This document shows, in pieces, positions 5,393-50,060 of a DNA stretch of 64,000 nt; the first letter of the stretch is position 1, and every line of letters starts with the position of its first letter. The notes beneath the pieces are model-generated. The model made no database searches, was not told where the DNA came from, and saw only the letters and a list, made by a program, of their open reading frames with translations. The stretch covers positions 288,933-352,932 of the forward strand of contig CP066682.1 in assembly GCA_016432285.1 (NCBI GenBank), read 5' to 3'. The DNA comes from Candidatus Kaiserbacteria bacterium. GTDB lineage: Bacteria; Patescibacteriota; Minisyncoccia; Phycocordibacterales; UBA2100. The position numbers were made by a program, and so were the translations under genes.

Positions 5393-5413
5393 TATAGGGA
5401 CTGTATGCGTTGC

Positions 5414-7050: not shown

Positions 7051-7059
7051 CATTCGCTT

Positions 7060-7659: not shown

Positions 7660-7662
7660 CGC

Positions 7663-8382: not shown

Positions 8383-8409
8383 TCTTGCACCGAGGCACGC
8401 CGGTTTCTC

Positions 8410-9129
8410 TTGCTTCCAGACAAGGATGACTTTCGCGCTGCGGCGATGTATACAGTCTCCATGGCGACGCAGTTCAACGACTGGTTCCGCACGCGCACGA
8501 CGCTCTTCTTGTACTGGGCTGTTTTCGCGCTCGTGCTTCTCGCCGCAGCGCTCTTCGCGCTTCGGGGCGATCTCGCCTCTGCCTTCGGGACGCTGCTGAT
8601 CCTCCTTCTCATGCTGGGGCCCACGATCCTGAAGCAGCGATATCGCCTCCATATTCCGTTTGCGCTCGATCTCGGAATCGTCGTCTTTATATTTCTCACG
8701 CTCTTTCTTGGCGGTATCGCCGAGTTTTACGACCGCATTCCGTTCTGGGACAAATTTTTGCACTTCCAGTCGGGGCTCCTTCTCGGCGCCGCGGGATACC
8801 TCCTCGTCTACATTCTCAACGAGCACGAGAAAATTCACCTGAATCTCTCGCCGGGGTTCGTCTCTTTTTTTGCGATCACCTTCTCGCTCGCGATCGGCGC
8901 GGTGTGGGAAATCTTCGAATTTGCGGGCGACCAGCTCTTCGCGATCACCTTCTGGCAAGGAGTCGGCGTGGCGGACACCATGTGGGATCTCATCGCCGAT
9001 GGGGCGGGGGCGCTCATCGTGAGCGTGAGCGGCTACTTCTGGATGTACCGGCACAAACGGCTGCCGTTCACCCCGTGGCTCTTCCGTTTTTTCTCCGAGA
9101 GGCTCAAAGGTGTCAGAGACGAGCGCTGA
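8410..9129 (+). CDS. polytopic membrane protein (uncharacterised)
   Basis: 239-aa ORF, about 6 TM. The start could be one of the downstream Met codons at 8446 or 8461. Confidence 0.55.
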   Translation: MLPDKDDFRAAAMYTVSMATQFNDWFRTRTTLFLYWAVFALVLLAAALFALRGDLASAFGTLLILLLMLGPTILKQRYRLHIPFALDLGIVVFIFLTLFLGGIAEFYDRIPFWDKFLHFQSGLLLGAAGYLLVYILNEHEKIHLNLSPGFVSFFAITFSLAIGAVWEIFEFAGDQLFAITFWQGVGVADTMWDLIADGAGALIVSVSGYFWMYRHKRLPFTPWLFRFFSERLKGVRDER

Positions 9130-9170
9130 TTCTCGGAACGACTTTTCCACAGGCTACGCACCATGCATGC

Positions 9171-9200
9171 TTGACGCCTGATACCCCCCGGGGGTATTAT
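9171..9200 (+). promoter_or_regulatory. promoter (TTGACG-18-TATTAT) overlapped by the 17-bp palindrome ATACCCCCCGGGGGTAT (CsoR-type operator)
   Basis: GC-rich perfect inverted repeat at 9181..9197 between -35 and -10. The csoR ATG at 9209 makes the transcript leaderless or nearly so. Confidence 0.6.
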
Positions 9201-9208
9201 GCGGGCAT

Positions 9209-9478
9209 ATGAGATCACCGATCAAGCAAAAGGCGCTGCGGCGCCTCAAGATTATCGAGGGGCAGGTGCGCGGGCTCCGGAGCATGGTGGAGGAGGAGAA
9301 GTACTGCGTGGACATCATTACCCAGTCCAACGCGGTCAAAGAGGCGCTCTCCGGCGTCGAGGATTTGGTGCTCGAAAATCACCTCTCGACCCACGTGCGG
9401 CACCAGATGAAGAGCGGGAAGGACGCGAAGGCGATCGAGGAGGTCATGAAGATCTACAAGCTCGCGCAGAAGAAATAA
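9209..9478 (+). CDS. csoR: CsoR/RcnR-family metal-sensing transcriptional repressor
   Basis: 89 aa. LRRLKIIEGQVRGLRSMVEEEKYCVDIITQ...HLSTHV matches the DUF156 metalloregulator pattern. Confidence 0.8.
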   Translation: MRSPIKQKALRRLKIIEGQVRGLRSMVEEEKYCVDIITQSNAVKEALSGVEDLVLENHLSTHVRHQMKSGKDAKAIEEVMKIYKLAQKK

Positions 9479-10680: not shown

Positions 10681-11138
10681 AAAACGCGTTGCTCTACATA
10701 AGCGTCGCACTCCTCGTCGGGCTCGGGATCTATGCGTTTGCAATACGCGGGCAGGAGAGCGCGGCGCCTGCCAGTGTGCAATCGAATGTGCTGGCGGAAG
10801 GCACGTGGGAGACGAAGACCAATAACGAGGCGTCGGTCACGGTGGCCGTAACGCCGCTCTCGCTGGGTGGGAGCGCTTCCGAGTGGCGGTTCAAGGTGGT
10901 CTTAGACACGCACACGGGCAGCCTCGACCGGGATCTTCTTGAAACGACCACGCTGTCAGACGGCTCAGGCGCGACCTACCGCGCTTCGCGCTGGGAAGGC
11001 GATCCACCCGGCGGGCATCACCGCGAAGGGGAGCTGACCTTCGAGCGAATCGACCCGACTCCTTCACGCATTACCATTCGTATAAACGATCTTGGCGGCG
11101 TCCCGGAAAGGACCTTGAGCTGGGACATCCAAAAATAA
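10677..11138 (+). CDS. secreted hypothetical protein
   Basis: ATGA start/stop overlap with the upstream gene. N-terminal TM or signal, beta-rich domain with GGHH. Confidence 0.55.
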
Positions 11139-11139
11139 T

Positions 11140-11355
11140 ATGAATCACGATTGTTGCGGCGGCCACGAGAAGCACGAACACAAAGCTTCGACCGCAAGCG
11201 CAGAAACGTACACGTGCCCCATGCACCCCGAGGTGCAGAAGGACGAGCCCGGCTCGTGCCCGGATTGCGGCATGTACTTGGTCCCGAAGTCGGCCGAGGC
11301 AACCGGGGGGCACCACAAAAACGAAGGCGCGCACAAAGGCGGGTGTTGCTCGTAA
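11140..11355 (+). CDS. heavy-metal-binding-domain (HMBD, YxCPMHP...CPxCGM) mini-protein
   Basis: YTCPMHPEV...[11 protein letters not shown] core flanked by [11 protein letters not shown] and [16 protein letters not shown]. Confidence 0.7.
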
Positions 11356-34236: not shown

Positions 34237-35730
34237 ATGAAGCGACTGCCTTTTTTTGTAGTGGCGATTTTTTTGTGTATCCCTTTGGCGGCCTCTGCTG
34301 CGACACTTTCGAGGCCTTTTGAAGTTTCCGGATGGATTCCGTACTGGCGAACCGCGACGGGCACTGCGGACGTGCTCCCGCGCCTCAATCTCCTCACCGA
34401 GGTCAACCCCTTCGTCTATACGCTCAAATCCGACGGCACGCTGCTCGACAACGGCTCACTCGATCAAGAGCCATGGCTCACCCTGCGAGCGCAGGCAAAG
34501 GCGCAGGGCGTCCGGTTCGTTCCGACGGTCATGACAGGCAACGGCGACCTGCTCCATGATCTTTTGAGCAACCAGGCGAAGCGTATCGCGCTCGAAGACC
34601 GAATCGCGGCGCTTGTGAAAGAGCAGGGCTTCGACGGCATCGATATCGATTTCGAAGGAAAGAAGGCGGCCGACAAAGATTACTTCTCGACCTTCCTCAA
34701 GGGCCTCTACCAGCGGATGGGCGATAAGTGGGTGATGTGCACGATCGAGTCCCGCACGCCGCAGGCCGACCGGTACTACGGCACCACGCCGCCGGCGGAC
34801 GCGGGCCTCTTCGCCAACGACCTCCGGGAGGTCAATAAATACTGCGACCGCGTGCGCATCATGGCCTACGACCAGCAGGGGATCGATCTGAAACTCCTTG
34901 CCGACGCAGAAGCGAAGGGGCAGCTCTATGCGCCGGTGGGGGATCCGGCCTGGGTGGAGAAGGTGGTCAATCTCATGGCGCAGGACATCGCGCGCAACAA
35001 GATCATGATCGGCGTGCCGACGTACGGCTACGAGTACGACGTAACCGCGTACGCGAACAACGAGTACGTCTATGACATCCTCTGGACCTTCAATCCCGGC
35101 TACGCGGGGCCGATTGCGGCGCAGTACGGCATTACGCCCGAGCGTGCTTCGTGGGGCGAGATGTACTTTACGTACCTCAATGCGGCGACCTCGACGCCAC
35201 CCGTTTCGAGCATCGGTGCCTCGCAGGTGGCAGCCGCCGCAAGCGCGTTTTCGACCTCTGGCAACACAAATTCGCGCTTCCGCTTAATGGTCTGGCCCGA
35301 CGCGCAGTCTGTCGCCGATCGGATCGCGCTCGCGAAAAAGCTCGGCGTGCGCGGCGTTTCCGTTTTCAAGTTCGACGGCGGGCAAGACCCGAACATCTGG
35401 AACACTATCGCATCGAGCGCGCAGTCCGCGCCGCCGGCGAGCGCGGGAGCGCCAAGCGGTGCCGCACTTTCGCGCACCCTGACGCTCGGCTCCGTGGGGA
35501 GCGACGTGCGTACGCTCCAGCGCATACTCAATTCGGATTCGAGCACGCAAATCGTCGCGAGCGGCCCGGGCGCTCCCGGCAGCGAAACGGATCGCTTCGG
35601 CGCGATGACGCTGCGGGCCGTGCAGAAATTCCAAGTGAAGTACGGTATCGCGCGAGCGGGGAGCACCGGTTACGGTGTGGTGGGGCCCGCCACGCGCGCG
35701 AAACTCAATTCGCTGCTCGCATCCCTCTGA
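34237..35730 (+). CDS. glycoside hydrolase family 18 protein with C-terminal peptidoglycan-binding domain
   Basis: Signal peptide. DGIDIDFEG matches the DxxDxDxE catalytic motif. C-terminal PG_binding_1 (LQRILN...GPATRAKL). Confidence 0.75.
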   Translation: MKRLPFFVVAIFLCIPLAASAATLSRPFEVSGWIPYWRTATGTADVLPRLNLLTEVNPFVYTLKSDGTLLDNGSLDQEPWLTLRAQAKAQGVRFVPTVMTGNGDLLHDLLSNQAKRIALEDRIAALVKEQGFDGIDIDFEGKKAADKDYFSTFLKGLYQRMGDKWVMCTIESRTPQADRYYGTTPPADAGLFANDLREVNKYCDRVRIMAYDQQGIDLKLLADAEAKGQLYAPVGDPAWVEKVVNLMAQDIARNKIMIGVPTYGYEYDVTAYANNEYVYDILWTFNPGYAGPIAAQYGITPERASWGEMYFTYLNAATSTPPVSSIGASQVAAAASAFSTSGNTNSRFRLMVWPDAQSVADRIALAKKLGVRGVSVFKFDGGQDPNIWNTIASSAQSAPPASAGAPSGAALSRTLTLGSVGSDVRTLQRILNSDSSTQIVASGPGAPGSETDRFGAMTLRAVQKFQVKYGIARAGSTGYGVVGPATRAKLNSLLASL

Positions 35731-38913: not shown

Positions 38914-38974
38914 ATTTACAGTCTATTCATCGTTCTCCTCGGGGCGTGTGAAAGTCTCACCGCTGAAACAAAAG

Positions 38975-39010
38975 AGAAAGCCCTCGCGCGCACGCGAGGG
39001 CTTTCGGTTT
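38975..39010. terminator. bidirectional rho-independent terminator
   Basis: AAAGCCCTCGCG-cgca-CGCGAGGGCTTT with an A-run before and a T-run after. Lies between convergent genes. Confidence 0.7.
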
Positions 39011-39032: not shown

Positions 39033-39686
39033 CTAGATCCCGCGTGCCGTTTCCCGCGGACCGCCCTTGCTCGACGGCTCTTCGGGGAGGTTCAGCGTTA
39101 CGTTCGGGCTTTCCCTTCCGTTTCCGAAAGTGAAGGTGAATCGGCCTCCGTACGACCCGTCCCCCTCAAAGGAGAAGAGCCTAAAGAGATCTTTCCGATA
39201 GACCTCCAGAACGCGTTCGAGTCGCTGACCCGACTCGCCGCTGCGAGAAATCCGACAGAGATGCGGGGCTGTTCCCCACAACTCACGAGATTCCACGAGC
39301 ATGAGAAGCCAACTGTCGCCGAAGGGGTTCGTCATGTCCTTCGGCTGCCCGACGGGGAACGAAAGAAGGGTGAACGGAATCGTCCCCTCGCCGTACTTAT
39401 CGCACCGGTCGTCAGGCTGGCCGTGGATGGCGAATCTGCCGACATCCACGATCATTAAGACAGCCGGGATCAAGAGAGCGACAACCGCCACGTCGCGCGT
39501 ACGAACGCTCTGACGCGCGTAGAGACTGGCGCTCAGGAAGAGCACGAAGATCACGCCGGCAGAGAGGAGCATGCGTCCCGTCTCCGGAGAGACGTAGGTC
39601 GTGTGTTCGACATACCGTGTGATCTCCGCGAAGACCCGAAAGATCGCGTCCACGATGGGCGCGAGCTCATCCAAGATGACTTTCAT
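39033..39686 (-). CDS. ExbD/TolR-like single-pass membrane protein with extended extracytoplasmic domain (second of two)
   Basis: Start overlaps the upstream stop. TM helix VLMIVDVG carries an Asp. Large C-terminal outside domain. Confidence 0.4.
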   Translation of the reverse strand: MKVILDELAPIVDAIFRVFAEITRYVEHTTYVSPETGRMLLSAGVIFVLFLSASLYARQSVRTRDVAVVALLIPAVLMIVDVGRFAIHGQPDDRCDKYGEGTIPFTLLSFPVGQPKDMTNPFGDSWLLMLVESRELWGTAPHLCRISRSGESGQRLERVLEVYRKDLFRLFSFEGDGSYGGRFTFTFGNGRESPNVTLNLPEEPSSKGGPRETARGI

Positions 39687-40396
39687 GATGCACACCCTTT
39701 CGTCGGTGTACACGTGGGCGGATTGTCGGCCGCCCCTACCGTCGCGATACGCTGCGTCGGCAGATTCGGATACGTCTCGACCGAGTCGAACAACACGTCG
39801 CTCTTCTCGTCCCAGACGATTTGCGCAAGCGAACACTCCTCGCCGACCTGGCCGATCGTAAACTCAAGGTTTACGATCGTCTTCTGGCGGGGAGAGTCTT
39901 TGTTGGCGATCGCGAGCACGGTGCCTTTCACGGGGAGAGGCCCCCCGTGCCTGCTCCAGATGTGCGTGTTGATGAGGCACACCGTATTTTTTGGCACTGT
40001 GCGCACGCTCGAGTTGACCCGCGCCTCCTCCACGTTCCGTTGTGAACGAGGATAGCCGGTAGCATCATGCAGCAGATTGAGCCACCGACTGCTCTTGCGG
40101 TTGTAGAACACGACCGTGGGGTCGGTCCGCTGCATGTTCACAAGCGAGTAGCAGGTGATGTAGAGATCGAGGTCGTGCGGCAATTGGTCCGCCCAACGCA
40201 TTTCGATGTAGAAAGGCGTTGGCTCGGTCGTTTGCCGCTTCTCAATCCCGTCGCGCGGAGGTGGATTCACCTGCGGGATCGCGATGGCGCCCGCAAAGAG
40301 AAACACCACCACAACCAGGATCATGTTCTCGACAAAGCCCATGATCGCCGACGGATCGCTGAAGCCGAACCGCCGCCTGTGAGTACGAGTTCTCAT
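39683..40396 (-). CDS. ExbD/TolR-like single-pass membrane protein with extended extracytoplasmic domain (first of two)
   Basis: AGGAGA lies 5 nt before the ATG. Basic N-terminus, then TM IMGFVENMILVVVVFLF with an acidic Glu, then a periplasm-like domain of about 180 aa. Confidence 0.45.
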   Translation of the reverse strand: MRTRTHRRRFGFSDPSAIMGFVENMILVVVVFLFAGAIAIPQVNPPPRDGIEKRQTTEPTPFYIEMRWADQLPHDLDLYITCYSLVNMQRTDPTVVFYNRKSSRWLNLLHDATGYPRSQRNVEEARVNSSVRTVPKNTVCLINTHIWSRHGGPLPVKGTVLAIANKDSPRQKTIVNLEFTIGQVGEECSLAQIVWDEKSDVLFDSVETYPNLPTQRIATVGAADNPPTCTPTKGCAS

Positions 40397-40404
40397 CTGA
40401 TCTC

Positions 40405-41199
40405 CTATGACGGTTCGGGTTGTGCCTTGAAGAAGGCGTCGCTTTGGATGACCGGCATGATGAACGACGCGGTCAACTTCCAAAAGTCGGCGCTCACTTC
40501 GTCAGCCTGACGTTGAAGGACCGCCTCGAAGAGGAAGAGCCAGATGGCCCCGCCCCACCCGAGAACGGCACTGATGTAGACGACGCCCATGCCGTGATAG
40601 AGGAGGAAGAGATACTGCTTCGTCTCCTCCGGTGTCACGGGCATGTCTCTTTGCGCCGTCATGGCCATGACGATGCCGACGATCGTGCCGAAGAGTCCGA
40701 GCGAGACAAGGAGCGTGCGCGCCCACGCGAGGCGGGCAAACAGCGCTTCGAGTCGCGTCCCGAATTCTTCGACGACTTCGGTCGTGCCGAGCAGTGGGCG
40801 CATGCCAAGTGTCTGGCATGTTTCCACGTGCTCTTTCAGCGCCAGGATGACTGACCCGGCGCGACTGTGATGCTCGCGCACCGCACGGCTGCCGAAGAGG
40901 TGTCGTACGAAGACGACCGGTTCCGCACCAGCACGCATCCGCTCAAAGCCGTCGATCACCGCGCGTTCCTCCGAGAGCAATCCTGCCGCCGGGAACGCGA
41001 GGAAAAAGACGACTCCGAGAATCACCCCCGTGAGGGCGCCCGCCGTCGCAAACGTCATACGATCGGGGAAGCTCGCGAGGAACCAGTCGAGAAACTGGTT
41101 CTCGTACGCAAGGATGACCGCCACGACGAGCGCGGCAATCGTCAGGTAACAGAATGAGAGTGATCCGAGCCGCAGGGCCCGCGTTGCTGTCGCTGCCAT
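40405..41199 (-). CDS. MotA/TolQ/ExbB-family proton-channel protein
   Basis: Signature LGLFGTIVGIVMAM followed by a helix with polar residues. 3-4 TM. Confidence 0.6.
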   Translation of the reverse strand: MAATATRALRLGSLSFCYLTIAALVVAVILAYENQFLDWFLASFPDRMTFATAGALTGVILGVVFFLAFPAAGLLSEERAVIDGFERMRAGAEPVVFVRHLFGSRAVREHHSRAGSVILALKEHVETCQTLGMRPLLGTTEVVEEFGTRLEALFARLAWARTLLVSLGLFGTIVGIVMAMTAQRDMPVTPEETKQYLFLLYHGMGVVYISAVLGWGGAIWLFLFEAVLQRQADEVSADFWKLTASFIMPVIQSDAFFKAQPEPS

Positions 41200-41304
41200 G
41201 AGCGCATCTCCATTGCTTGAAGTTTCATACACTATGGATTGCCTCAAAGGACAATCCGCTTTGACTGTACTGCGCCGCTTAGCTGGCCGCAAGGAAGCGC
41301 ACGA

Positions 41305-42966
41305 TCAGTACACGCCCGGCACGAATTTCCACGGCACGGCCTTCTGGTAGGGCGCGTAGTCGGGATTGGAGTACTGCATGAAGTTATCTTCGCGCTCGGA
41401 GCGGATCCAATAGAGGAAGAAGAACATGAGGATCGCAAGCCAGTGGACGCCGGCGCTAAGGCCCACGAGCTCCGTGACGAAAAACATGCCCGCTTCGAGC
41501 GCGTAGTTGGGATGCCGCACCGTGCGGTAGAAAAAAGAGCTCCGCACGCCTTTGTCTGTCATCAGGTCAAACATCGTCCAGAGATTCAGGATCGAAAGTG
41601 TGTAGAGCAGGTTGAAAAAAAGTCCGAGCACGAGCACGAGCCACAGCAAGGGCCCCGCCGTTACGATCGGATCGGCACCGGTGAACGAGGGCGTCATCTG
41701 CCAGATCACGACACCGAAGAGTGGGTAGTTGAAGCCATTGGTGAGCCAGCCCGTCACCGTAAAATCGAGGCTGCGGATGTAGCGTCCCCAGAGAATACTC
41801 ACCACCGAAAAGCCGTAGCCGATGAGACAGCCCGCCACCGTGATTGCCCAGAGCGCGTACTTCGCCTGCTCGAAAAAAGCCTCCAGCGAGGGCGGCGGCC
41901 ACCCGAACGAGCGCACCGCCGCGATGTCGCCCGCCAAGAATCCCACGAGCGTGAGCGCGAAAAAATAGACGATGACGAGGTGGAGCGCCCAGTTGGTAAA
42001 GCCGCGCGCGAATCCCACCTTCTTGATCACGCCCGTGCCTTTGTACGAGAGAAACTGCCAGAAGGCGAGTATGGGAGAGCGCCGCTTCCAGAAGAGGAAG
42101 GCGTAATATCCGATGCCAACAGCGGCGATCGAAAACGGCACGAGAGAATCGATCTGCGGCCGAAGCGAGATCACGTTGCTAAAGAGTAGGCGCGAGATTT
42201 CGACCGTGAGATATGAGAAAAGAAATACCGGCATCGTTCCGAGGAACCACGAAAAAGGAATGCCGCCCGCGATATTGACGACCCAAAGAATCGTTTTTTT
42301 GGGAACGCGGAGGGTGCGGATGTACTCTCCACAAGCGATGAGGGGAGAGCGTCGCCGCATGGCGCGGTAGCCGAAGTAGCCCACCGCGAGCGCCCCGATC
42401 ACGACCGCTTCCACGGTGGACAGCAGCGAATCGTCGTACTTCGCAACCTGTGTCGCCGTGCCGAATTCGCTCACGTGGAGATCCTCGAGCGGGCCGATGT
42501 CACGCGGCAAATCAATGCGTGATCGATTCGCTTCCACCTCGACGACGTGCGCCTGTCCCACGACGGATGTGCCGCGAAAGATGGTGAGGTACTGATCAGG
42601 AGAGACGCCGAAATCCGCGCCGAGCGAGGTGAAAAAATCCTCGCCGTCCTGCACAATCTTTCCGTGCATGCCGAGCGAGAAACGGCTCGGCTGTAGCGCG
42701 ACAATCGCGCGATCGTCCTCGACGCGCTCGACGACGATGGTGCCGATCGGTGTCTTCGTCGAGTAGTTGAAACGGTAGAGTGGCAACCGCTCTCCCGCCT
42801 GGAGACCGTTCGATTTTGCGAGGACGCCTCGCGATTCGTCGATCGTCTGCACGATCGGAAGGTGCGCGGTGGAGGCGGCGTGAAAGGGAGCGAAGACGAT
42901 GACAGTAAGGAGCAGCAAAAAGGCCAGCTCGTATGCCATTTTTACTGCGCCTGTGAGGAGCTGCAT
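41305..42966 (-). CDS. large polytopic membrane protein with C-terminal isoprenylcysteine carboxyl methyltransferase (ICMT/PEMT)-like domain
   Basis: C-terminal RTVRHPNYALEAG...EDNFMQYSNPDYAPYQKAVPWKFVP matches the ICMT signature. N-terminal extracytoplasmic domain plus about 9 TM. Confidence 0.6.
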   Translation of the reverse strand: MQLLTGAVKMAYELAFLLLLTVIVFAPFHAASTAHLPIVQTIDESRGVLAKSNGLQAGERLPLYRFNYSTKTPIGTIVVERVEDDRAIVALQPSRFSLGMHGKIVQDGEDFFTSLGADFGVSPDQYLTIFRGTSVVGQAHVVEVEANRSRIDLPRDIGPLEDLHVSEFGTATQVAKYDDSLLSTVEAVVIGALAVGYFGYRAMRRRSPLIACGEYIRTLRVPKKTILWVVNIAGGIPFSWFLGTMPVFLFSYLTVEISRLLFSNVISLRPQIDSLVPFSIAAVGIGYYAFLFWKRRSPILAFWQFLSYKGTGVIKKVGFARGFTNWALHLVIVYFFALTLVGFLAGDIAAVRSFGWPPPSLEAFFEQAKYALWAITVAGCLIGYGFSVVSILWGRYIRSLDFTVTGWLTNGFNYPLFGVVIWQMTPSFTGADPIVTAGPLLWLVLVLGLFFNLLYTLSILNLWTMFDLMTDKGVRSSFFYRTVRHPNYALEAGMFFVTELVGLSAGVHWLAILMFFFLYWIRSEREDNFMQYSNPDYAPYQKAVPWKFVPGVY

Positions 42967-43042: not shown

Positions 43043-44362
43043 ATGAATCGGACGTACGTCCTCGGCGGTGCCGTCGCCCTCGTTCTCGTAATACTCTTTT
43101 TGTGGACACAGGCCGCGGGCGATTTCGTCGGGCAAGACGTCCGGCTCGCGCTCTTTAACACCGGTGAAACAAAGAAGGGACTTCTCTACATCCCGACGCG
43201 CCGCGACGCAGAGGGTGCAGCTGTGGAGTTTTTTGTCGATGTGAATGCGGATGGCACTTTCGCTCCCGAAGAAAAAGTGGGGGGCAGCGCAAGCATGCGC
43301 GGGCTGAAGGGCAAGAGTGTGGGCGTTCCCGTTTCGTTTACGTCAGCGCCCGAAGCGGGGAGCAGAGTGAAGATCGCTTTTGAGAACGATTCATACATTC
43401 GAACGATCGCGGAAGTGGCGGTCGAATCCGAAGATCTTCTCGAGCTTGAGAAAGTTACTGATCCCGAGAATGCGATGAAAGGTCTTTTCTACGGTGTCGC
43501 TTTCGCCAAAGAGCCGGCGACGGAAGCCGGCCGCATAACTCCGGATATTGGTCAGCGTATCGCAGAGTGCGCGCCCACTGCGGCAGCCAACAGCATCATT
43601 TCGCTTGCGGAGGATCACGGACAAAGCGACAAGCTCCCCGCCGATGCCGACCTCATCGATCAGCTGAAGGGCGACATGGACTGGACACCGGAGAACGGCG
43701 TTTTGCCGGATGATTTCGTGGAGGGAAAGAATCGCTGGGCGGCGACACACGGGCTGCCGATACAAACCACAAAAGTGGGCGACCAACACGGCCGTACCAC
43801 GATCGAGGCGCTGCTCGATGGTCTTGCCGAGGGAGGCGCGGCCGAAATGCGCATCAAATTTGCCGATGCCAGGGGCAAAGCGACCGGCGGACACATGGTG
43901 ACGGTAACCGGCGTGCGCGTCGTCGGCGACCAGACCTTCGTAGAAGTGGCAGACCCGCGTACGCCGGAGGGGTACGACACGTACGAAGTCGAGGGCAACA
44001 CGCTCAAGGACTACCCGTACGAGGGAATTGCCGTCATAAGCTGGGGCTTCGTGCAGCGCTGGGTGGAGCCTACCGGCACGCAGCTCGACCCGATGACCGA
44101 CGCGGAGGTGGAAGGCATTCGCGCTGCGGTCGGCGTGAAGGAGAAGATCAAGGTGATCGTCGTGCTCGGGAGGAAAATTCCACTCTCGCAGGTACACGTG
44201 GGTAAGGGATCCGACTGCACAGAAGGAGGCAAGGAGATGCCGCACTACCACGCCAACGACGGCTCCGCGACCGCACTTGATGGTACCGTTGTGCAGGATA
44301 ACGATGGCTGCGGCTATGGAATGGTCAAGAATATTCCGGTCGAGGACGCTGAAATTCCGTGA
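43043..44362 (+). CDS. secreted hypothetical protein
   Basis: 439 aa with an N-terminal TM. Transcribed divergently from the minus-strand operon. Confidence 0.6.
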   Translation: MNRTYVLGGAVALVLVILFLWTQAAGDFVGQDVRLALFNTGETKKGLLYIPTRRDAEGAAVEFFVDVNADGTFAPEEKVGGSASMRGLKGKSVGVPVSFTSAPEAGSRVKIAFENDSYIRTIAEVAVESEDLLELEKVTDPENAMKGLFYGVAFAKEPATEAGRITPDIGQRIAECAPTAAANSIISLAEDHGQSDKLPADADLIDQLKGDMDWTPENGVLPDDFVEGKNRWAATHGLPIQTTKVGDQHGRTTIEALLDGLAEGGAAEMRIKFADARGKATGGHMVTVTGVRVVGDQTFVEVADPRTPEGYDTYEVEGNTLKDYPYEGIAVISWGFVQRWVEPTGTQLDPMTDAEVEGIRAAVGVKEKIKVIVVLGRKIPLSQVHVGKGSDCTEGGKEMPHYHANDGSATALDGTVVQDNDGCGYGMVKNIPVEDAEIP

Positions 44363-44390
44363 TTTTATAATTCATGAGATAGTGAGAGTC

Positions 44391-45020
44391 ATGGATACAC
44401 AAAGCAACATAGGCAAATACATTATCTGGCTTCTCGTTGCCGTGATCGCTGCGGTGGGCGGCTACTACGCGTGGCAACTTCTCGGGCAAGCCGCCAGTCA
44501 GGCTCCGCAGAATGAGGAGCCGCTCGAGGTGGTGCCGCAGTTCTCCACGTATGCCACCTCCACCTTTTCGATCACGTATCCGCAAGGCTACACGGTCGAC
44601 GACGCGTACGCATACGAAGGCGTGCCCAAGAAACCGATCGCGGGCGTGAAGTTTACGATTCCGGGTGCGATGGCCACCGGCACGAATCTCTCGACCGACT
44701 CCGGCGTCTCGGTGGAATGGCTCCCGCGCGCCCAAAAGTGCGCCGGCGACATCTTTCTTTTTGACAACGTCCGCTCGCAGGAGCTGACCGTCGGATCGAC
44801 CACATGGTCGGTAGCCACCACCTCCGGCGCGGGCGCGGGCAATTTGTACGAAGAAATGGTGTATGCGGTCGTCGGCAGCAAGCCCTGCACCGCGGTGCGC
44901 TATCTTTTGCACTCGACCAATATCGGCAACTACGACCCGGGCGCGGTGCGCGAGTTCGACCGCCTCAAGCTGATCGCCGATTTCAACGCGATCCGCGACT
45001 CGCTCACGCTCAGTCAGTAG
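44391..45020 (+). CDS. membrane-anchored hypothetical protein
   Basis: Start at MDTQSNIGKYIIWLLVAV. Confidence 0.55.
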   Translation: MDTQSNIGKYIIWLLVAVIAAVGGYYAWQLLGQAASQAPQNEEPLEVVPQFSTYATSTFSITYPQGYTVDDAYAYEGVPKKPIAGVKFTIPGAMATGTNLSTDSGVSVEWLPRAQKCAGDIFLFDNVRSQELTVGSTTWSVATTSGAGAGNLYEEMVYAVVGSKPCTAVRYLLHSTNIGNYDPGAVREFDRLKLIADFNAIRDSLTLSQ

Positions 45021-45662: not shown

Positions 45663-46919
45663 ATGAATTCCAGCTTGGCGCCTGAAGGCGCTCCCACGTT
45701 TTATCACCTCGGCATCGCGCCGAACGTCTTGGCGGTACTCGAGCGTCTCCGGTTCACCACGCCGACGCCGATCCAGCACCAGGCGATCCCGCTCGCGATC
45801 GAAGGCAAGGACATCGTCGGCATCGCACAAACGGGCACCGGAAAAACGCTGGCCTTCGGCGTGCCGACCATCCAGCATATTCTCGCCACCGGCGGTACCG
45901 GCCTCGTGCTCCTGCCTACGCGTGAGCTCGCGCTCCAGGTAGAGGAGACCTTCCACAAGGTGGGGCAGCCACTCGGGATCAAGACTGCGCTCTTGATCGG
46001 CGGAGCCTCGATGGGCCCGCAGCTCGCTGCCTTGAAGCGCAATCCGGATGTCGTGATCGCCACACCCGGCCGTCTCATCGATCACCTGGATAGCGGCACG
46101 ATCCGGCTTGGAGGCGTCTCGATCCTGATTCTCGACGAGGCTGACCGCATGCTCGACATGGGCTTTCTGCCGCAAATCCGGCGCATCCTCGCGGCGCTGA
46201 CGCCAGAGCGGCAGACCATGCTCTTTTCGGCGACGCTCTCGCCGGAGATCATGACGATCGCCACGAAAACGATGCGCCTGCCGCTTCGCATCGAGGTGGC
46301 TCCCTCCGGTACCACCGCAGAGCGCGTTACGCAGGAATTTTTTATGGTGCGAAAAGACGAGAAGCCGCGGCTCCTTGAAAAGATCTTGAGCGAGTATCGC
46401 GGCTCGACACTCGTTTTTACCCGCACGAAGCATGGCGCCAAAAAGATCACGCGGGTCGTCCGCTCCCTGGGGCACGAGGCGGCGGAGATCCACGGCAACC
46501 GCTCGCTGAATCAGCGCAGGGAAGCCCTCGAAGGATTTAAAACAGGGAAGTATCGCGTGCTCGTAGCCACCGACATCGCCGCGCGCGGCATCGACGTGCG
46601 CGGGATTGAGCTCGTGATCAACTACGACCTTCCCATGCAGGCAGCCGATTACGTGCACCGCATCGGCCGCACCGGACGAGCGGGCGCCGAAGGGCATGCG
46701 ATCTCCTTTGCGCTGCCGGACGAGCGACGCGATATACGCGACATCGAAAGGCTGGTCCGCAAGAGCGTCCCGATCTCACACCTTCCGGAGCTACCGCCCG
46801 CACGACAGGTCGTGCAGGAGCGGGAGCACGCTCCCCGGCAGTTGGGCCGCCGAGGACCCTCGCGCCCTCGGCGCTCTTTCGGCCGCTCGCGCCCTTCCGG
46901 TCGGCGCCCGCAATGGTAG
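45663..46919 (+). CDS. DEAD-box ATP-dependent RNA helicase
   Basis: Q-motif, AQTGTGKT, DEAD, SAT, HRIGRTGR and an RG-rich C-tail. Confidence 0.9.
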   Translation: MNSSLAPEGAPTFYHLGIAPNVLAVLERLRFTTPTPIQHQAIPLAIEGKDIVGIAQTGTGKTLAFGVPTIQHILATGGTGLVLLPTRELALQVEETFHKVGQPLGIKTALLIGGASMGPQLAALKRNPDVVIATPGRLIDHLDSGTIRLGGVSILILDEADRMLDMGFLPQIRRILAALTPERQTMLFSATLSPEIMTIATKTMRLPLRIEVAPSGTTAERVTQEFFMVRKDEKPRLLEKILSEYRGSTLVFTRTKHGAKKITRVVRSLGHEAAEIHGNRSLNQRREALEGFKTGKYRVLVATDIAARGIDVRGIELVINYDLPMQAADYVHRIGRTGRAGAEGHAISFALPDERRDIRDIERLVRKSVPISHLPELPPARQVVQEREHAPRQLGRRGPSRPRRSFGRSRPSGRRPQW

Positions 46920-46928
46920 AATCCTCCT

Positions 46929-47039
46929 ATGGCAAAACGACAAGCGGATATTCAGCGTAATAAGTCGCGTTCCCGGAAGACCAAGAAGCGCCTCGAAGCG
47001 AAGCGCATCATGCTCGAGAAGAAGGGTTACAAGTGGTAG
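46929..47039 (+). CDS. possible small basic protein (36 aa, MAKRQADIQRNKSRSRKTKKRLEAKRIMLEKKGYKW)
   Basis: Below the ORF-track cutoff. Fills the gap between the helicase and DUF1905. No obvious SD. Confidence 0.2.
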   Translation: MAKRQADIQRNKSRSRKTKKRLEAKRIMLEKKGYKW

Positions 47040-47042
47040 CCT

Positions 47043-47339
47043 GTGGCGAAGACTTTCAGGGTGAAATCCAGAGTGTGGCTCTATCCGGGCGAAGCAGCCT
47101 GGTATTTCGTCAACGTCGATAAGAAACAGTCTGAGAGAATCCGCGAGATGCAGGCCGGAAAAATGCGGAGGGGATTCGGCTCCGTGCATGTGAAGGCAAC
47201 GATCGGCAAGACGACCTGGAGCACATCGATTTTTCCCGACAAACAATCCGGCACCTACCTCCTGCCGCTGAAGGCGGCAGTCCGCCGTGCCGAGGGCCTC
47301 GACACCGGCGACCCGATCGCCTTCATTCTTGAGATTTAG
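47043..47339 (+). CDS. DUF1905 domain protein
   Basis: GSVHVKATIGKTTWSTSIFPDKQSGTYLLPLKAAVR pattern. Confidence 0.7.
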   Translation: MAKTFRVKSRVWLYPGEAAWYFVNVDKKQSERIREMQAGKMRRGFGSVHVKATIGKTTWSTSIFPDKQSGTYLLPLKAAVRRAEGLDTGDPIAFILEI

Positions 47340-47378
47340 CCAACTCGAAAATCGAGTGTAGTATTTCTCTTGCAAAAT

Positions 47379-47420
47379 AAGCGAGACGGAGACTAAATCT
47401 CGCTTGGCATTTCTTTATTT
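47379..47420. terminator. bidirectional rho-independent terminator
   Basis: AAGCGAGA-loop-TCTCGCTT followed by TTTCTTTATTT. The reverse complement is also U-rich. Confidence 0.65.
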
Positions 47421-47479
47421 CGGGCGCTGACAATCGTGTATCGGAATTTCCGTACCTATGTCGCGGAGTAGTTGTTACT

Positions 47480-47764
47480 TCACCGGTTTGAATTGATCCA
47501 TTCCCATGTAGAAGCTTGCAGGTATCCGTAGTAATCGCCGCCCGACATTTTCATAACCATCAGCGAATCATTTGAATCCATGGCCTCTTTAATAAACTTG
47601 GCCAGTTGCTCTGAGGATTGGCTGCTTGAAATAAATCTGACGGAATCTAAACCAGGATCTTTTGTATTCGGGAACTGATCAATTTTCTTTAAAAGCCGAT
47701 CTCGCGCCGCGATGTAACCAGTCTTTTCCTTATTTAGGTCCCACGTCACGAAATACACGGCCAT
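47480..47764 (-). CDS. hypothetical protein (low-GC islet)
   Basis: 94 aa. Local GC about 45-50% against about 60% in the flanks. Confidence 0.5.
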   Translation of the reverse strand: MAVYFVTWDLNKEKTGYIAARDRLLKKIDQFPNTKDPGLDSVRFISSSQSSEQLAKFIKEAMDSNDSLMVMKMSGGDYYGYLQASTWEWINSNR

Positions 47765-47770
47765 AAGTAT

Positions 47771-48118
47771 CTAGATTATTTTGAAGAAGGCTTGGATTAA
47801 TATACCAATACCCGCAGTCACAATTAAACCCGCTATCCAAAAAATTGTCTTGACTCGCGAGCGATCTACGTACTCCCGAACTTCTTTGCCCGCAAGAGAT
47901 TTTACTTTCTCTATAAAGGACTCCTGACTCAGCAGATCTGCAAAGACCTCTTTTACGTCTTTCGCAAATTCCTTACTGTTGTGATGTTCGCTGCAAATTT
48001 CGAGCACTCTTTTTCGAAAATCCTCGTGTTTCCAAGCCTCTTTAGAAATGCTGTCGAATTTATCAAGATATTTGCTAGGTATGTCATCTTCTAGGCGTTT
48101 TTGATGCTCATCAGCCAT
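47771..48118 (-). CDS. tail-anchored hypothetical protein (low-GC islet)
   Basis: 115 aa, charged, with a single C-terminal TM. Confidence 0.5.
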   Translation of the reverse strand: MADEHQKRLEDDIPSKYLDKFDSISKEAWKHEDFRKRVLEICSEHHNSKEFAKDVKEVFADLLSQESFIEKVKSLAGKEVREYVDRSRVKTIFWIAGLIVTAGIGILIQAFFKII

Positions 48119-48129
48119 AGAGCCGAATG

Positions 48130-48360
48130 CTATTTTTGTTGGATTTTCGAAGGTCCAGGCTCATGTGCCTCGCCTTGTTTTTCCTTTGCTCTTTGTACAA
48201 ATGCAATTCCAACTTTTACTACTTCGAGTGGATCGTCGCTCCCAATAAATTTTTTCAACGATTCCAATTGTTCAAGTGCTCCATTTGTGAAAGAAACTGT
48301 GAGTGCATCTTTCTTCGCGCCTCCCTCAACGACCTCTTCTTTTTTACTTGTTATCGCCAT
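48130..48360 (-). CDS. small hypothetical protein (low-GC islet)
   Basis: Start moved to MAITSKK, giving 76 aa. Confidence 0.4.
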   Translation of the reverse strand: MAITSKKEEVVEGGAKKDALTVSFTNGALEQLESLKKFIGSDDPLEVVKVGIAFVQRAKEKQGEAHEPGPSKIQQK

Positions 48361-48496
48361 AGCAGTGCATCGTTGATGAATAATACTACAAAACTTGAAT
48401 ACAACTAGATCAAAGTAGAGCCACGACGGCATGAAGGGACCCTTAAGACGGCGGGACACGTCATGCATTATTTTCTGATCGCCAATCCGTCCTTGT

Positions 48497-48652
48497 TTAC
48501 TGCTCCGAAGCGCCGGTGAGGTTGATTTGGAGGCCGTTCTGTTCTTCCTTCGGAGCTCCCGGCCCGTAGGTGGTGTACCAGTACGCACCGGCTGCCACGA
48601 TGACGAGGAGGATAACGACGAGTAGGATCGTATTAACGCCGCTGTTGTTCAT
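48497..48652 (-). CDS. small membrane protein
   Basis: 51 aa from MNNSGVNTILLVVILLVIVAAGAYWY. Confidence 0.35.
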   Translation of the reverse strand: MNNSGVNTILLVVILLVIVAAGAYWYTTYGPGAPKEEQNGLQINLTGASEQ

Positions 48653-48795
48653 AGAAAAAAGCTTATTGCTATCGTTCAAGCATAGCATTCGTTCATTCCC
48701 TGCTTATCGGAAAGGGGGACAGTAAAGCGCTCGGCATCTCTCGCACCTAAGGCGTAGTTCGTCGGCCGAGTTTCGGAGACTGCTATGATGGGACG

Positions 48796-49284
48796 ATGAG
48801 ACTCGTTCCGGCGCACCTGCGGAATTTTGTGTTCGGCGTGGAAGATAGTCTCGTCTCCACCGTAGGACTCCTCTCGGGAATCGCGATCGCGGGCGTGGAG
48901 CGCGAGACGATTTTCCTCACTGGTGTCGTCCTCGTTTTCGTAGAAGCGGTCTCCATGGCGGCCGGCAGCTTCCTCTCCGAAGTGTCGGCGGAAGAGTACG
49001 AGGGCGGGAGGGGCGTCGGCCAGCGACAATCTCTTTTTTCCGGCCTCATCATGTTTGGTTCGTACCTGATCGCAGGCTTCATTCCCATTTTCCCGTACAC
49101 CTTCCTCGAAGGTACTCGCGCCTTCGCTTCCTCGATCATGCTGTCGGTTGCCGCACTTTTCGTACTCGGCGCTTGGAGCGGCGTGCTCTCCCGAAGCGGG
49201 TTGATACGCGGCGCGCTGCGCATGGCGGTCGTGGGCGGAGTCGCAATCGCGGTCGGCGTTGGAGTCGGCACTTTCATAAGCTGA
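48796..49284 (+). CDS. VIT1/CCC1-family (DUF125) membrane protein
   Basis: VSTVGLLSGIAIAG...GGVAIAVGVGVGTFIS pattern. Lacks the usual cytosolic N-domain. Confidence 0.6.
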   Translation: MRLVPAHLRNFVFGVEDSLVSTVGLLSGIAIAGVERETIFLTGVVLVFVEAVSMAAGSFLSEVSAEEYEGGRGVGQRQSLFSGLIMFGSYLIAGFIPIFPYTFLEGTRAFASSIMLSVAALFVLGAWSGVLSRSGLIRGALRMAVVGGVAIAVGVGVGTFIS

Positions 49285-49838
49285 TGACGAGACGAACCCT
49301 TCTTTTCGTCGGAATACCTCTTGCCGTACAGGCGGCCGTACTCTTTTCTTTGGGGCAGCCATGGATATGCGAATGCGGATTCGTGAGGGTGTGGGAGGGG
49401 GCAGTTCTCGGCGCCGGCAACTCGCAGCACCTCACTGATTGGTACACCTTCAGCCACATCATCCACGGTTTCGTTTTCTACAGCATTCTCTGGTATTTCT
49501 TCCCGCGCCTTTCCGTGCGGCAGCGGCTTCTCATCGCGACGGCGGTCGAAGCGAGTTGGGAGATCCTCGAAAATACGCCTGCGGTGATCGAGTACTATCG
49601 GCAACAAGCGCTCGCGCAGGGCTACGTGGGCGACAGCATCCTGAATTCCATCACGGACACACTTGCCATGATCGCCGGTTTCCTTGCAGCGTGGCGACTC
49701 CCTGTATGGAGTGTCGTCGCGCTTTCGCTCGCAATGGAAATATTTGTCGGCTGGTCGATACGAGACAATCTCACACTCAATATTCTCGGCTTTTTCTGGC
49801 AGCCGGAATTCATCAGCACGTGGCAGTCGGGAGGGTGA
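49284..49838 (+). CDS. DUF2585-like membrane protein
   Basis: 1-nt overlap with the upstream gene. CxCG motif and about 5 TM. Confidence 0.5.
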   Translation: MTRRTLLFVGIPLAVQAAVLFSLGQPWICECGFVRVWEGAVLGAGNSQHLTDWYTFSHIIHGFVFYSILWYFFPRLSVRQRLLIATAVEASWEILENTPAVIEYYRQQALAQGYVGDSILNSITDTLAMIAGFLAAWRLPVWSVVALSLAMEIFVGWSIRDNLTLNILGFFWQPEFISTWQSGG

Positions 49839-49889
49839 GAGCTGTGCATAACTGGCTCGCCGCCTCTTTTTAGTGCGTACACTATTTGT

Positions 49890-50060
49890 ATGGCAAAGAA
49901 TGGTCGGAAGGGGCGCGGAAGGAAGGGCACGGTAAAAAGCCGTTCGCAGGTCTTGAGTTCCCGCAACAAACGCTGGACCAAGGTGAGCGGCAAGACCGGA
50001 CGCTTTATCGATCAGATGGCGCGCAAGGGCAAGGCCTTCAAGGGCGTCCGCATGAAGTAG
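49890..50060 (+). CDS. possible small basic protein (56 aa, MAKNGRKGRGRKGTVKSRSQVLSSRNKRWTKVSGKTGRFIDQMARKGKAFKGVRMK)
   Basis: Not in the ORF track. Sits in an otherwise empty 260-nt gap. Confidence 0.25.
   Translation: MAKNGRKGRGRKGTVKSRSQVLSSRNKRWTKVSGKTGRFIDQMARKGKAFKGVRMK

Follow-up and report, generated by a model that had tools for sequence, protein, structure and literature searches.

Three adjacent genes of a Candidatus Kaiserbacteria (CPR) genome, here termed B, C and D, probably form a self-contained cassette encoding a new subtype of the ion-driven '5:2' membrane motors of the MotA/ExbB/TolQ/ZorA superfamily. They belong to a run of four co-directional minus-strand ORFs at 39033-42966 of the window, by which we mean the whole stretch of 64,000 nucleotides analysed (Table 1), and an independent assembly yields the same four gene calls (553, 264, 237 and 217 aa). 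The preliminary description had read this run as a four-gene operon: the four ORFs stand, but the functional unit comprises B, C and D only. Its argument for co-translation from gene overlaps and ribosome-binding sites holds within the cassette, where C shares 4 nt (ATGA) with D and lies 8 nt from B, with an AGGAGA across the stop codon of B; C is translationally coupled to B. Gene A adjoins B upstream at a distance of 105 nt.

A strong terminator-like hairpin lies 28 nt past the D stop codon, the window neighbours of the cassette are housekeeping genes and the GC content is unremarkable. As had been claimed, a recognisable client is absent from the cassette neighbourhood, and TonB and flagellar genes are lacking among the about 10 neighbouring proteins to which this check was confined. 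By contrast, the sortase with an LAXTG substrate reported earlier did not turn up in a simple pattern search; of the PG-binding proteins, one of GH18+PG_binding_1 type is present.

Table 1. Features of the cassette and its surroundings (window positions).
Feature	Position	Strand	Remarks
GH18+PG_binding_1 protein	34237-35730		one present in window
Intrinsic-terminator-like hairpin	38976..39005	-	13 pairs, 9 G-C, T-rich tail (terminator scan; inverted repeat I11)
Gene D, 217 aa, third cassette subunit	39033..39686	-	
Gene C, 237 aa, single-pass axle-type subunit	39683..40396	-	
Glu23 codon GAG of C, putative ion-accepting carboxylate	40328..40330	-	inside TM helix, FVENMIL
Gene B, 264 aa, four-TM MotA/ExbB/TolQ/ZorA-type subunit	40405..41199	-	ORF + gene call
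LGLFGTIVG codons, L167-G175, TM3 of B	40675..40701	-	G-L-x-G-T motif
Gene A, 553 aa, multi-TM, C-terminal PEMT/ICMT-like domain	41305..42966	-	outside conserved cassette

Sequence features of the three subunits

Its sequence makes B a four-TM protein of the MotA/ExbB/TolQ/ZorA superfamily, though a divergent one. Hydropathy predicts four TM helices (~13-31, 56-74, 162-180 and 203-227), with a cytoplasmic loop of ~85 aa between TM2 and TM3 and a C-terminus of ~37 residues beyond TM4. Residues 167-180 read LGLFGTIVGIVMAM, and the G-L-x-G-T motif is common to ExbB, TolQ and ZorA; a 24-sequence B alignment shows almost no variation at L167, G171 and G175, and the motif region is aligned with the GIIGTFYG region of ZorA. 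Against Pfam MotA_ExbB the window B scores 19.3 bits (E 1e-3), below the gathering threshold of 22.9, and against PADLOC ZorA2 it reaches E 1.8e-5. Searched against PDB, a 7-sequence B profile matched ZorA (1.5e-3), and one built from 24 cassette B sequences, headed by the window B, matched ZorA (3.7e-8), MotA (8.3e-8), TolQ (1.1e-5), ExbB (3.5e-5) and PomA (2e-4). The MotA/ExbB assignment made earlier is thereby upheld at the level of the family profile, although the single sequence stays under the Pfam threshold. PF01618 is recorded on syntenic B proteins of Proteobacteria and Planctomycetes (L003, L010, L011), and the NCBI name for B is MotA/TolQ/ExbB proton channel family protein.

In C, a cytoplasmic tail at the N-terminus leads into a TM helix (~15-43); a linker of only ~16 residues, in which an NPPP motif is found, joins this helix to an external beta-sandwich of TerD-like fold (residues 60-195). 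Its earlier description as a single-pass protein with an acidic TM residue is borne out by hydropathy, which places Glu23 of FVENMIL within the helix, and by conservation of the carboxylate: of 88 homologues at least 90% have Asp at this position, and the nearest CPR relatives have Glu. In hhalign comparisons Glu23 falls opposite Asp25 (ExbD) and Asp23 (TolR), and it also aligned with the TM Asp of ZorB, not significantly (E 1.3). As judged from these alignments, the near-invariant Asp/Glu of C sits where the proton-accepting Asp of ExbD/TolR does. The ExbD/TolR alignment is confined to the TM helix, and comparison of C with ExbD, MotB and ZorB profiles gave nothing significant beyond this stretch of ~25 residues; the label 'ExbD-like' suits the helix but not the outer domain. 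In the sandwich, an acidic/polar set is invariant (D75, D77, D111, E123 and N143), and D112, N121 and H145 are near-invariant. The TerD family (TerD/TerE/TerZ, tellurite-resistance; PDB 2qz7, 2kxt, 3ibz) shares 11-17% identity with C; its members differ in being soluble, without a TM fusion and not paired with MotA-like genes. Pfam TerD matched neither C (E <= 1) nor 36 C homologues (E <= 0.1), one of the homologues gave a weak DUF2135 match (E 0.006), and the C family is a small one, with 37 of 1.84e9 representative clusters and 1068 proteins in a profile search.

D, the obligatory third gene, represents an orphan two-TM family and lies invariably 3' of C where present, overlapping it or nearly so. 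It had been presented as a second ExbD-like partner, single-pass and with an acidic TM residue, and this is not supported: hydropathy predicts two TM helices (39-57 and 65-83) with a basic loop between them, homologues do not retain Asp81 (MIVDVG), and D shows no similarity to C or ExbD. The C-terminal domain of ~130 aa carries a conserved PDDRC...HLCR...FTF..PNVT pattern and a K..GPPE.P-type tail. Searches of Pfam, NCBIfam, PHROG and PDB returned no relatives, and in the alignment of D homologues no polar TM residue is conserved that would correspond to the TonB/TolA His. Structure prediction for D reached a pLDDT of 45, too low for a model, so that any role assigned to it is speculative.

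Distribution in bacteria and phages

Synteny of B, C and D recurs in other CPR contigs and beyond (L001, L003, L005, L007-L012). Species-representative genomes contain at least 593 B-C-D loci, in which Alphaproteobacteria predominate, with a lesser share in some Gammaproteobacteria, Nitrospiraceae and Phycisphaeraceae; among 80 of these loci there was no further conserved neighbour. Most bacterial cassettes are flanked by ordinary genes, and that of L007 comes last in a series of defence-type genes (GmrSD, HEPN, MutH/Dcm/Vsr and AbiEi). The invariant residues are kept from CPR to Proteobacteria and phages, where sequence identity is 20-30%. Rather than being a monoderm peculiarity, the cassette is far commoner in diderm Alphaproteobacteria and is found in bona fide phages too.

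At least 80 IMG/VR viral contigs carry the cassette (B, C and D in 43 of 80 loci, B and C in 30), as do 29 records of cultured Rhizobium/Sinorhizobium phages. The carriers, both lytic and temperate, include Rhizobium phages P10VF and RHph_N3_13 and temperate phage 16-3, and the viral copies are annotated as hypothetical throughout. Their B proteins are only 141-154 aa long, almost without a cytoplasmic domain. Phages carry the cassette in early or immunity-proximal regions. In 18 of the 80 viral loci the gene directly 3' of D encodes a protease, and many phage copies have a co-operonic, secreted, trypsin-like protease.

A proposed membrane motor and competing readings

The best reading is, in short, a motor or channel acting on the outer side of the cytoplasmic membrane. 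A pentamer of B would surround a dimer of C, and ion flow at the B/C interface via Glu23 would lead to rotation or gating. The short C linker and the near absence of a cytoplasmic domain from phage B suggest that the work takes place on this outer side. The sandwich of C, probably Ca2+-binding, would perform this work jointly with D, whose gene position would be equivalent to that of TolA in tolQ-tolR-tolA. In line with an earlier claim, we found no matching described system, curated family or paper.

The cassette resembles Tol/Ton systems in gene order (a multi-TM MotA/ExbB-type gene, a single-pass protein with a TM Asp and a third membrane-anchored protein), in the TM3 motif and the TolQ and ExbB profile matches of B, and in the C helix with its Asp in register. 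However, the outer domain of ExbD/TolR is alpha/beta rather than a TerD-like beta-sandwich, D has two TM helices and lacks a conserved His/SHLS-type motif and a TonB_C or TolA_C domain, TonB-dependent transporters and Pal/TolB partners are not adjacent, and the cassette also occurs in phages and in organisms without an outer membrane. With MotA-MotB/PomA-PomB it shares the four-TM topology and large TM2-TM3 loop of B, the MotA profile match and a partner with a conserved TM carboxylate, whereas C lacks an OmpA-like domain and a long plug/linker, and the torque-generating cytoplasmic domain is wholly absent from phage B. The host here is a CPR bacterium, and this group is generally described as lacking flagella.

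B and C could alternatively form a gated channel, a proton or cation leak closed by the C sandwich and D, whose triggered opening would depolarise the membrane, leading to abortive infection in bacteria, and which in phages would control lysis timing or block injection. Unplugged MotAB leaks protons and arrests growth, phage B is almost purely membrane-embedded without a cytoplasmic output domain, the short C linker sets the sandwich right over the channel mouth, in the position of the MotB plug, and phages carry the cassette. Nevertheless, every characterised superfamily member performs mechanical work, and the conservation of D and of the external motifs suggests more than a plug; we regard a non-rotary channel as unlikely.

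Less probable still, the cassette could be a Zorya-like anti-phage system of a new kind, in which a ZorAB-type sensor motor would be coupled to a different effector. In PDB and PADLOC alike B matches ZorA best, the ZorB TM helix is the sole motor-related PDB match for C, L007 has its cassette beside defence-type genes, and ZorA-ZorB and the cassette are both non-flagellar, accessory, patchily distributed motors tied to phage biology. Yet B lacks the long C-terminal tail of ZorA, C lacks the peptidoglycan-binding domain of ZorB, no ZorC, ZorD or ZorE-like gene or enzymatic effector is adjacent, C and D are unmatched in PADLOC, and the cassette is encoded by phages themselves, including lytic ones, where host defence systems are not usually found.

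The four-gene operon, in which a stator-like module with two ExbD-like partners would work with an ICMT/PEMT methyltransferase in the manner of AglRQS, is largely refuted and very improbable. All four genes are co-directional, a terminator scan found no terminator-like site between A and B, and the PEMT score of A narrowly exceeds the curated cut-off (26.7 bits against 25, residues 446-531), although ICMT stays below threshold. The AglR/AglQ/AglS motor, in which two small membrane-protein genes come after a single MotA/TolQ-type gene, sets a precedent for two TolR-like partners. However, AglQ and AglS are both TolR-like and have the TM Asp, whereas in the cassette only C has such a residue, D coming from an unrelated two-TM family without a conserved carboxylate. 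AglR/AglQ/AglS is named among such motors (PMC12204202). A has homologues (36-53% identity) on five metagenome contigs, and none of these five is accompanied by B, C or D; those at 51-53% lack them in the available flanks (downstream of A, 3.3 kb in L095 and 1.9 kb in L096), yet the window neighbour at 44277-45020 is retained beside two of the five. Conversely, no A-like gene stands beside other cassettes in ~170 loci examined (L003-L012 included), and a conserved fourth gene is absent from nine loci of CPR, Proteobacteria and Planctomycetes and 160 others. The coupling to a methyltransferase is not conserved: A is a lineage-specific, unrelated neighbour, not a cassette member.

That B, C and D are what remains, without function, of Ton/Tol machinery or a flagellar stator once present in this monoderm lineage, as the sub-threshold Pfam score of the window B and the incomplete, probably non-functional Ton systems reported in monoderms (PMC12204202) might suggest, is hardly credible and essentially refuted by conservation of the invariant residues across CPR, Proteobacteria and phages, the ORFs also being intact and translationally coupled, the outer fold of C differing from ExbD, TolR and MotB, and the cassette having a third gene of its own.

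Possible role of the cassette

Apart from weak ZorA matches to B, no PADLOC model matches the cassette. Counting against a role in conflict, the support for it is distributional. Tentatively, the B-C-D motor may serve in envelope-level phage-host or phage-phage conflict, for example superinfection exclusion or defence, given its phage carriage in early or immunity-proximal regions, the co-operonic protease of many phage copies, its patchy distribution and ZorA as its closest sequence similarity. At least seven MAGs harbour two cassette copies, with which a housekeeping envelope function agrees equally well.

Genes B, C and D

Within the MotA/ExbB/TolQ/ZorA superfamily, genes B, C and D of the Kaiserbacteria window form a three-gene variant that is widespread, shared with phages, unannotated and unstudied. 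The window derives from a metagenome-assembled genome of this CPR lineage. The four minus-strand gene calls A to D are the same in an independent Logan assembly; B and C are separated by 8 nt, with an AGGAGA overlapping the B stop codon, C and D overlap in an ATGA, and GC content is flat through the region. In NCBI, the B protein is 100% identical to 'MAG: MotA/TolQ/ExbB proton channel family protein' and the C protein to 'hypothetical protein HYS26_01940'.

B is predicted from hydropathy to have four transmembrane (TM) helices (13-31, 56-74, 162-180 and ~203-227) with a TM2-TM3 loop of ~85 residues, which is a MotA-like topology. On its own it scores 19.3 bits against Pfam PF01618 (MotA_ExbB; E 1e-3, residues 180-268 of the long ORF), below the gathering score of 22.9, and it matches PADLOC ZorA2 at E 1.8e-5. 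Profiles of cassette B proteins reach further into the PDB: a seven-sequence profile retrieved ZorA (1.5e-3) and TolQ (0.023), and a 24-sequence profile, with the window B as its first row, retrieved ZorA (3.7e-8), MotA (8.3e-8), TolQ (1.1e-5), ExbB (3.5e-5) and PomA (2e-4). PF01618 is also recorded on the syntenic B proteins of a Geminicoccaceae (L003), a Phycisphaeraceae (L010) and a gammaproteobacterial (L011) locus. The best-conserved stretch of the family is LGLFGTIVG in TM3, with L167, G171 and G175 nearly invariant, and the overall arrangement is that of the superfamily: the C-terminal TM hairpin contains the G-x-x-G-T channel motif, and next to B lies the gene for a single-pass protein that has a carboxylate in its TM helix. 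The orthologue profile matches, the PF01618 records on syntenic proteins and the TM3 motif together show that B belongs to the MotA/ExbB/TolQ/ZorA superfamily, as a true though strongly diverged member. The family assignment in the preliminary description is thus upheld by the orthologues, although B's own Pfam score falls under the curated threshold. A holin identity was rejected, the Phage_holin_4_2 match (E 0.61) being noise.

Like ExbD and TolR, C has a single TM helix at its N-terminus (15-43), in which an Asp is conserved towards the cytoplasmic side. The putative ion-accepting residue is Glu23 in the window protein; of 88 aligned homologues at least 90% have Asp there, and the carboxylate is also kept in phage copies. 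When C was aligned by hhalign with E. coli ExbD and TolR, only the TM helix aligned (P 1e-3 and 5e-3), with Glu23 in register with ExbD Asp25 and TolR Asp23. Among PDB sequences the C profile had a single motor-related match, to the TM helix of ZorB, which was not significant (E 1.3). No match to C at E <= 1 was found in Pfam or NCBIfam, and none in PADLOC or PHROG; the ExbD profile hit 0 of 36 homologues at E <= 0.1, one of the 36 weakly matched MotB_plug (E 0.0076), and no OmpA or MotB match was obtained, the OmpA-like peptidoglycan-binding domain of the MotB/PomB/ZorB type being absent from C. Word-indexed protein searches queried with either B or C singly returned only the query itself and one 52% homologue. 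When 1.84 billion cluster representatives were searched exhaustively with HMMER for C, 37 relatives were found (13 at E <= 1e-10), and a profile search of 90% clusters gave 1068 proteins, all 'hypothetical' and free of Pfam domains. The architecture is common to all relatives: a short N-terminal tail is followed by one TM helix, by a conserved (I/V)NPP motif and by a domain of ~150 residues.

An AlphaFold model of C on the 88-sequence alignment (pLDDT 88) consists of helix 15-43, a linker of ~16 residues and an all-beta sandwich at 60-195. The predicted sandwich has the TerD fold, with a TerD also as the top PDB match in Foldseek; the matches in a BFVD fold search were all weak, and either TerD-like or unnamed. 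By sequence profile the domain falls outside TerD, as neither C nor 36 homologues matched Pfam TerD. The alpha/beta periplasmic domain of the ExbD/TolR type is absent. C is therefore ExbD/MotB-like in its TM helix only, with an outer fold unlike that of ExbD, TolR, MotB or ZorB; of the ExbD/TolR-like partner proposed earlier, the helix with its conserved carboxylate stands, whereas the profile relationship and the outer fold do not. Six residues are invariant in the C family (W68, D75, D77, D111, E123 and N143) and five nearly so (D112, G114, N121, H145 and E187), a pattern that suggests a metal site; the D75/D77/D111/D112/E123 cluster probably binds Ca2+. Cys82 and Cys140 are invariant within the CPR (Patescibacteria) subgroup, which is compatible with a disulfide bond and, through it, with an external position of the domain. 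The Cys-containing C-terminal tail of C (window 39683-39720), PPTCTPTKGCAS, is kept in the 52% homologue as APTCTPTRGGAS and partly in the C homologue P0004, and is missing from the remaining C family.

D had been described as a second single-pass ExbD-like subunit with an acidic TM residue, a description that we reject: hydropathy places two TM helices at 39-57 and 65-83, with a basic loop (RQSVRTRD) between them, and the residue in question (Asp81, in MIVDVG) is A, L, F or Y in homologues. Across 119 D sequences there is no conserved polar TM residue comparable to the His of TonB/TolA. The family has no relative in Pfam, NCBIfam, PHROG or PDB and matches neither the TonB_C nor the TolA C-terminal domain, and it can be traced from CPR to Proteobacteria and phages by its motifs (PKP/PDD after TM2, EPR.Y.LPW / HLCR, FTF / PFE and a PQP..P.K / K..GPPE.P tail). 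A PADLOC match to BrxB (E 9e-4) was regarded as noise, and the single-sequence structure model of D (pLDDT 45) was unusable.

Coordinates of the cassette genes, neighbouring features and compared loci
Feature	Sequence	Position	Strand	Description
A	window	41305-42966	minus	553 aa; PEMT/ICMT-superfamily domain
B	window	40405-41199	minus	264 aa; divergent MotA/ExbB/TolQ/ZorA-superfamily protein
C	window	39683-40396	minus	237 aa; single TM helix and predicted TerD-like outer domain
D	window	39033-39686	minus	217 aa; two predicted TM helices, orphan family
Terminator-like hairpin	window	38976-39005		13-bp stem, 3' of D
GH18+PG_binding_1 protein	window	34237-35730
Defence-type gene run	L007, CPR-type contig	491-7112		same strand as cassette
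Cassette	L007, CPR-type contig	7358-9318
PilZ-domain gene	L010, Phycisphaeraceae locus	4537-4881
PilZ-domain gene	L011, gammaproteobacterial locus	10896-11249
D-like gene	L158, viral locus	6612-7205
Protease gene	L158, viral locus	7202-8242
Cassette	L178, Rhizobium phage P10VF (T4-like)	3558-5062		P10VF_191/192/193, between topoisomerase II and late sigma factor
Cassette	L179, phage RHph_N3_13 (68 kb)	3434-4941		EVB79_063/064/065
Protease gene	L179, phage RHph_N3_13 (68 kb)	6483-7175
Cassette	L180, temperate phage 16-3	~4211-6072		p040 region, few kb from immX
Protease gene	L180, temperate phage 16-3	3184-4083		p036

Gene A and the chromosomal surroundings

The preliminary description had coupled the module to an isoprenylcysteine-methyltransferase (ICMT) fusion encoded by A. 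A scores 26.7 bits against PEMT, marginally over the cut-off of 25, and falls under the thresholds for ICMT (18 against 24) and NF040696 (15.3 against 160), so it can be assigned to the PEMT/ICMT superfamily and no further. A lies 105 nt upstream of B with no terminator between them, and the two may thus be co-transcribed in this organism. Full-length homologues of A (36-53% identity) occur on five metagenome contigs, all without B, C and D, and no A-like gene was present at the cassette loci examined. On two of the five (L095 and L096) the A homologue keeps beside it the counterpart of the window gene at 44277-45020 (247-aa ORF), and neither B-C-D nor the 439-aa gene at 43043-44362 was found at these two loci, which suggests that B-C-D and the 43043-44362 gene are insertions in the Kaiserbacteria lineage of the window. 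A superfamily fusion is accordingly a fair description of A, but its linkage to B-C-D is not conserved, and the proposed coupling reflects chance adjacency of the genes in this lineage.

The examined neighbours of A-D are ordinary chromosomal genes (TypA/BipA-like, SelR (MsrB), HAD hydrolase, ABC ATPase, GH18+PG_binding_1 and DEAD-box helicase), and a prophage origin of the region was rejected on the strength of these housekeeping neighbours and the flat GC. No att-like flanking repeats were found around the four-gene block. A 15-nt direct repeat (14/15 identical; 38958-38972 and 43159-43173) brackets the whole block; each copy is located within a minus-strand, T-rich tail of terminator-like character, and the repeat is thus probably a chance or convergent terminator sequence. 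Elsewhere in the window, GC content drops to 0.52-0.55, against ~0.59, at 2001-6000 and 46001-50000, and the first of these stretches holds the sole tRNA of the window (tRNA-Gln, 2643-2714). The sortase and LAXTG substrate from which a monoderm context had been drawn did not reappear in whole-window simple pattern searches, which gave nothing convincing (no LAxTG/LPxTG with a hydrophobic tail, no TLxTC).

Distribution in bacteria and phages

At the compared loci the order B-C-D is constant, successive genes either overlapping or lying no more than 17 nt apart. The cassette occurs on L001, which carries the closest homologue (C 52% identical), on four further CPR-type contigs (L005, L007, L008 of Paceibacterota, and L009) and, outside CPR, in the Geminicoccaceae, Phycisphaeraceae and gammaproteobacterial loci L003, L010 and L011; it is also present on contig L012. 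Scanning a single genome of each species for the pattern recovered at least 593 loci, mostly from Geminicoccaceae and other Alphaproteobacteria. Among the loci listed are those of the cultured Azospirillum oleiclasticum and Benzoatithermus flavus, as well as Gammaproteobacteria, Nitrospiraceae and Phycisphaeraceae; a search of species-representative genomes with alignment A1 gave no loci. ORF clustering of 80 of the at least 593 loci placed C in all 80, B in two clusters (76 and 34 loci) and D in two (60 and 23), and no other gene family was present in more than 15 of the 80, leaving no conserved fourth gene. The cassette is a self-contained unit of three genes, with D as an obligatory member and A excluded from it. 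In CPR it was probably acquired horizontally.

Many alphaproteobacterial genomes have two paralogous cassettes. Two copies were counted in at least seven metagenome-assembled genomes (MAGs); locus pairs from the same MAG are L013/L048, L019/L054, L022/L090, L020/L052, L047/L055, L072/L086 and L067/L074, and on contig CAVSVZ010000002.1 two cassettes (L026 and L029) lie ~7.4 kb apart. On L007 the cassette directly follows a same-strand run of defence-type genes (GmrSD_N, HEPN_RiboL-PSP, RadC, MutH, DNA methylase, Vsr and a weak AbiEi_4). PilZ-domain genes, whose products bind flagellar stators, lie 0.4-5 kb from the cassette on L010 and L011, possibly by coincidence.

Viral genomes carry the cassette as well. 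An IMG/VR scan yielded at least 80 viral contigs of 30-71% GC and up to 242 kb, with phage genes such as those for a tail sheath stabiliser and proteases among the neighbours. HMMs built from the cassette proteins detected B, C and D together on 43 of the 80 listed contigs and B and C on 30. Among cultured phages in INPHARED the cassette is found in 29 records, all of Rhizobium or Sinorhizobium phages. In P10VF, RHph_N3_13 and 16-3 it is a miniature version with a B-like protein of 141-147 aa; its products there are all annotated as hypothetical, and its surroundings are early or DNA-metabolism genes or the vicinity of immX. The phage B proteins are very short (141-154 aa), retaining four TM helices and a GLGLIG(T/A) motif with almost no cytoplasmic loop, and no PHROGs family exists for B, C, D or the phage copies. 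In 18 of the 80 listed viral loci (L154-L171 and others) the end of the D-like gene coincides with the start of a gene for a secreted trypsin-like serine protease, and a protease gene lies within 2 kb of the cassette in phages 16-3 and RHph_N3_13; such a gene was beside the cassette in none of the 80 bacterial loci listed. The secreted protease may be a fourth, phage-specific component.

Relation to known motors and possible role

To our knowledge, each characterised family of 5:2 motors (MotAB, ExbBD, TolQR, GldLM, AglRQS, ZorAB and SiiAB) powers a distinct envelope process. The cassette keeps the conserved ion-pathway features of these motors and departs from them in its other parts. The outer domains of ExbD, TolR, MotB and ZorB differ in fold from the predicted TerD-like sandwich of C. 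By gene order D holds the place of TonB or TolA, yet it fails the defining features of both: TonB and TolA have a single N-terminal TM helix with a docking His (SHLS-type), whereas D has two TM helices and no such residue. In Zorya, ZorA has a long C-terminal tail and the effectors ZorC, ZorD and ZorE are adjacent, whereas cassette B stops ~37 residues after TM4, no fourth gene is conserved, and PADLOC reports a weak ZorA for B and nothing for C or A. The earlier statement that no described system matches the module held up, with no cassette family in Pfam, NCBIfam, PHROG or PADLOC and no description of B-C-D found by full-text literature search. In a 2025 phylogeny of MotAB relatives, many uncharacterised homologues that have additional domains are recognised as 'generic ion transporter' proteins (PMC12505986). 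A survey of force transducers, likewise from 2025, enumerates the known 5:2 motors and remarks that monoderms occasionally have Ton remnants, presumed to be non-functional (PMC12204202). Neither paper brings up CPR, carriage by phages or a partner of the TerD type.

By analogy with the structures of MotAB, ExbBD, TolQR and ZorAB, a B pentamer would surround a C dimer (5:2), and protonation and deprotonation of the Glu23 carboxylate would drive relative rotation of B and C. The short C linker and the phage B proteins devoid of a cytoplasmic domain make an output as cytoplasmic torque, or one reaching a distant wall layer, unlikely; output would more likely pass through the C sandwich and D at the membrane surface. 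As to the process served, the early or immunity-proximal position of the cassette in lytic and temperate phages, the protease partner, the defence genes of L007 and ZorA as nearest relative all point to envelope-level conflict, a role that we put forward tentatively. Also possible are a gated leak channel and a housekeeping envelope function, the latter in keeping with the two cassette copies per genome in many Geminicoccaceae. The conflict role forms part of a broader 'TerD-axle' reading that is rather doubtful as a whole, under which B-C-D, here from a CPR bacterium, would be the founding member of an unrecognised class of 5:2 ion-driven motors with an orphan two-TM third subunit. Bacteria and phages, the latter both lytic and temperate, would employ such motors on the surface of the cytoplasmic membrane in phage-host or phage-phage conflict (for instance superinfection exclusion, injection blocking or counter-defence), with many phages adding a secreted serine protease; the phage versions have a very compact A (MotA-like) subunit of ~145 aa.

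In the cassette the outer domain of the axle subunit is swapped for a TerD-like, probably Ca2+-binding sandwich, and an unrelated, obligatory third subunit is added. The phage-borne copies, including that of the genetically tractable temperate phage 16-3, make its role experimentally approachable, and the very small MotA-like proteins of phages could be of use for modelling the motor core in minimal form. In the context of CPR biology, it represents an envelope machine, presumably driven by the proton-motive force, in an organism taken to be without flagella or an outer membrane.
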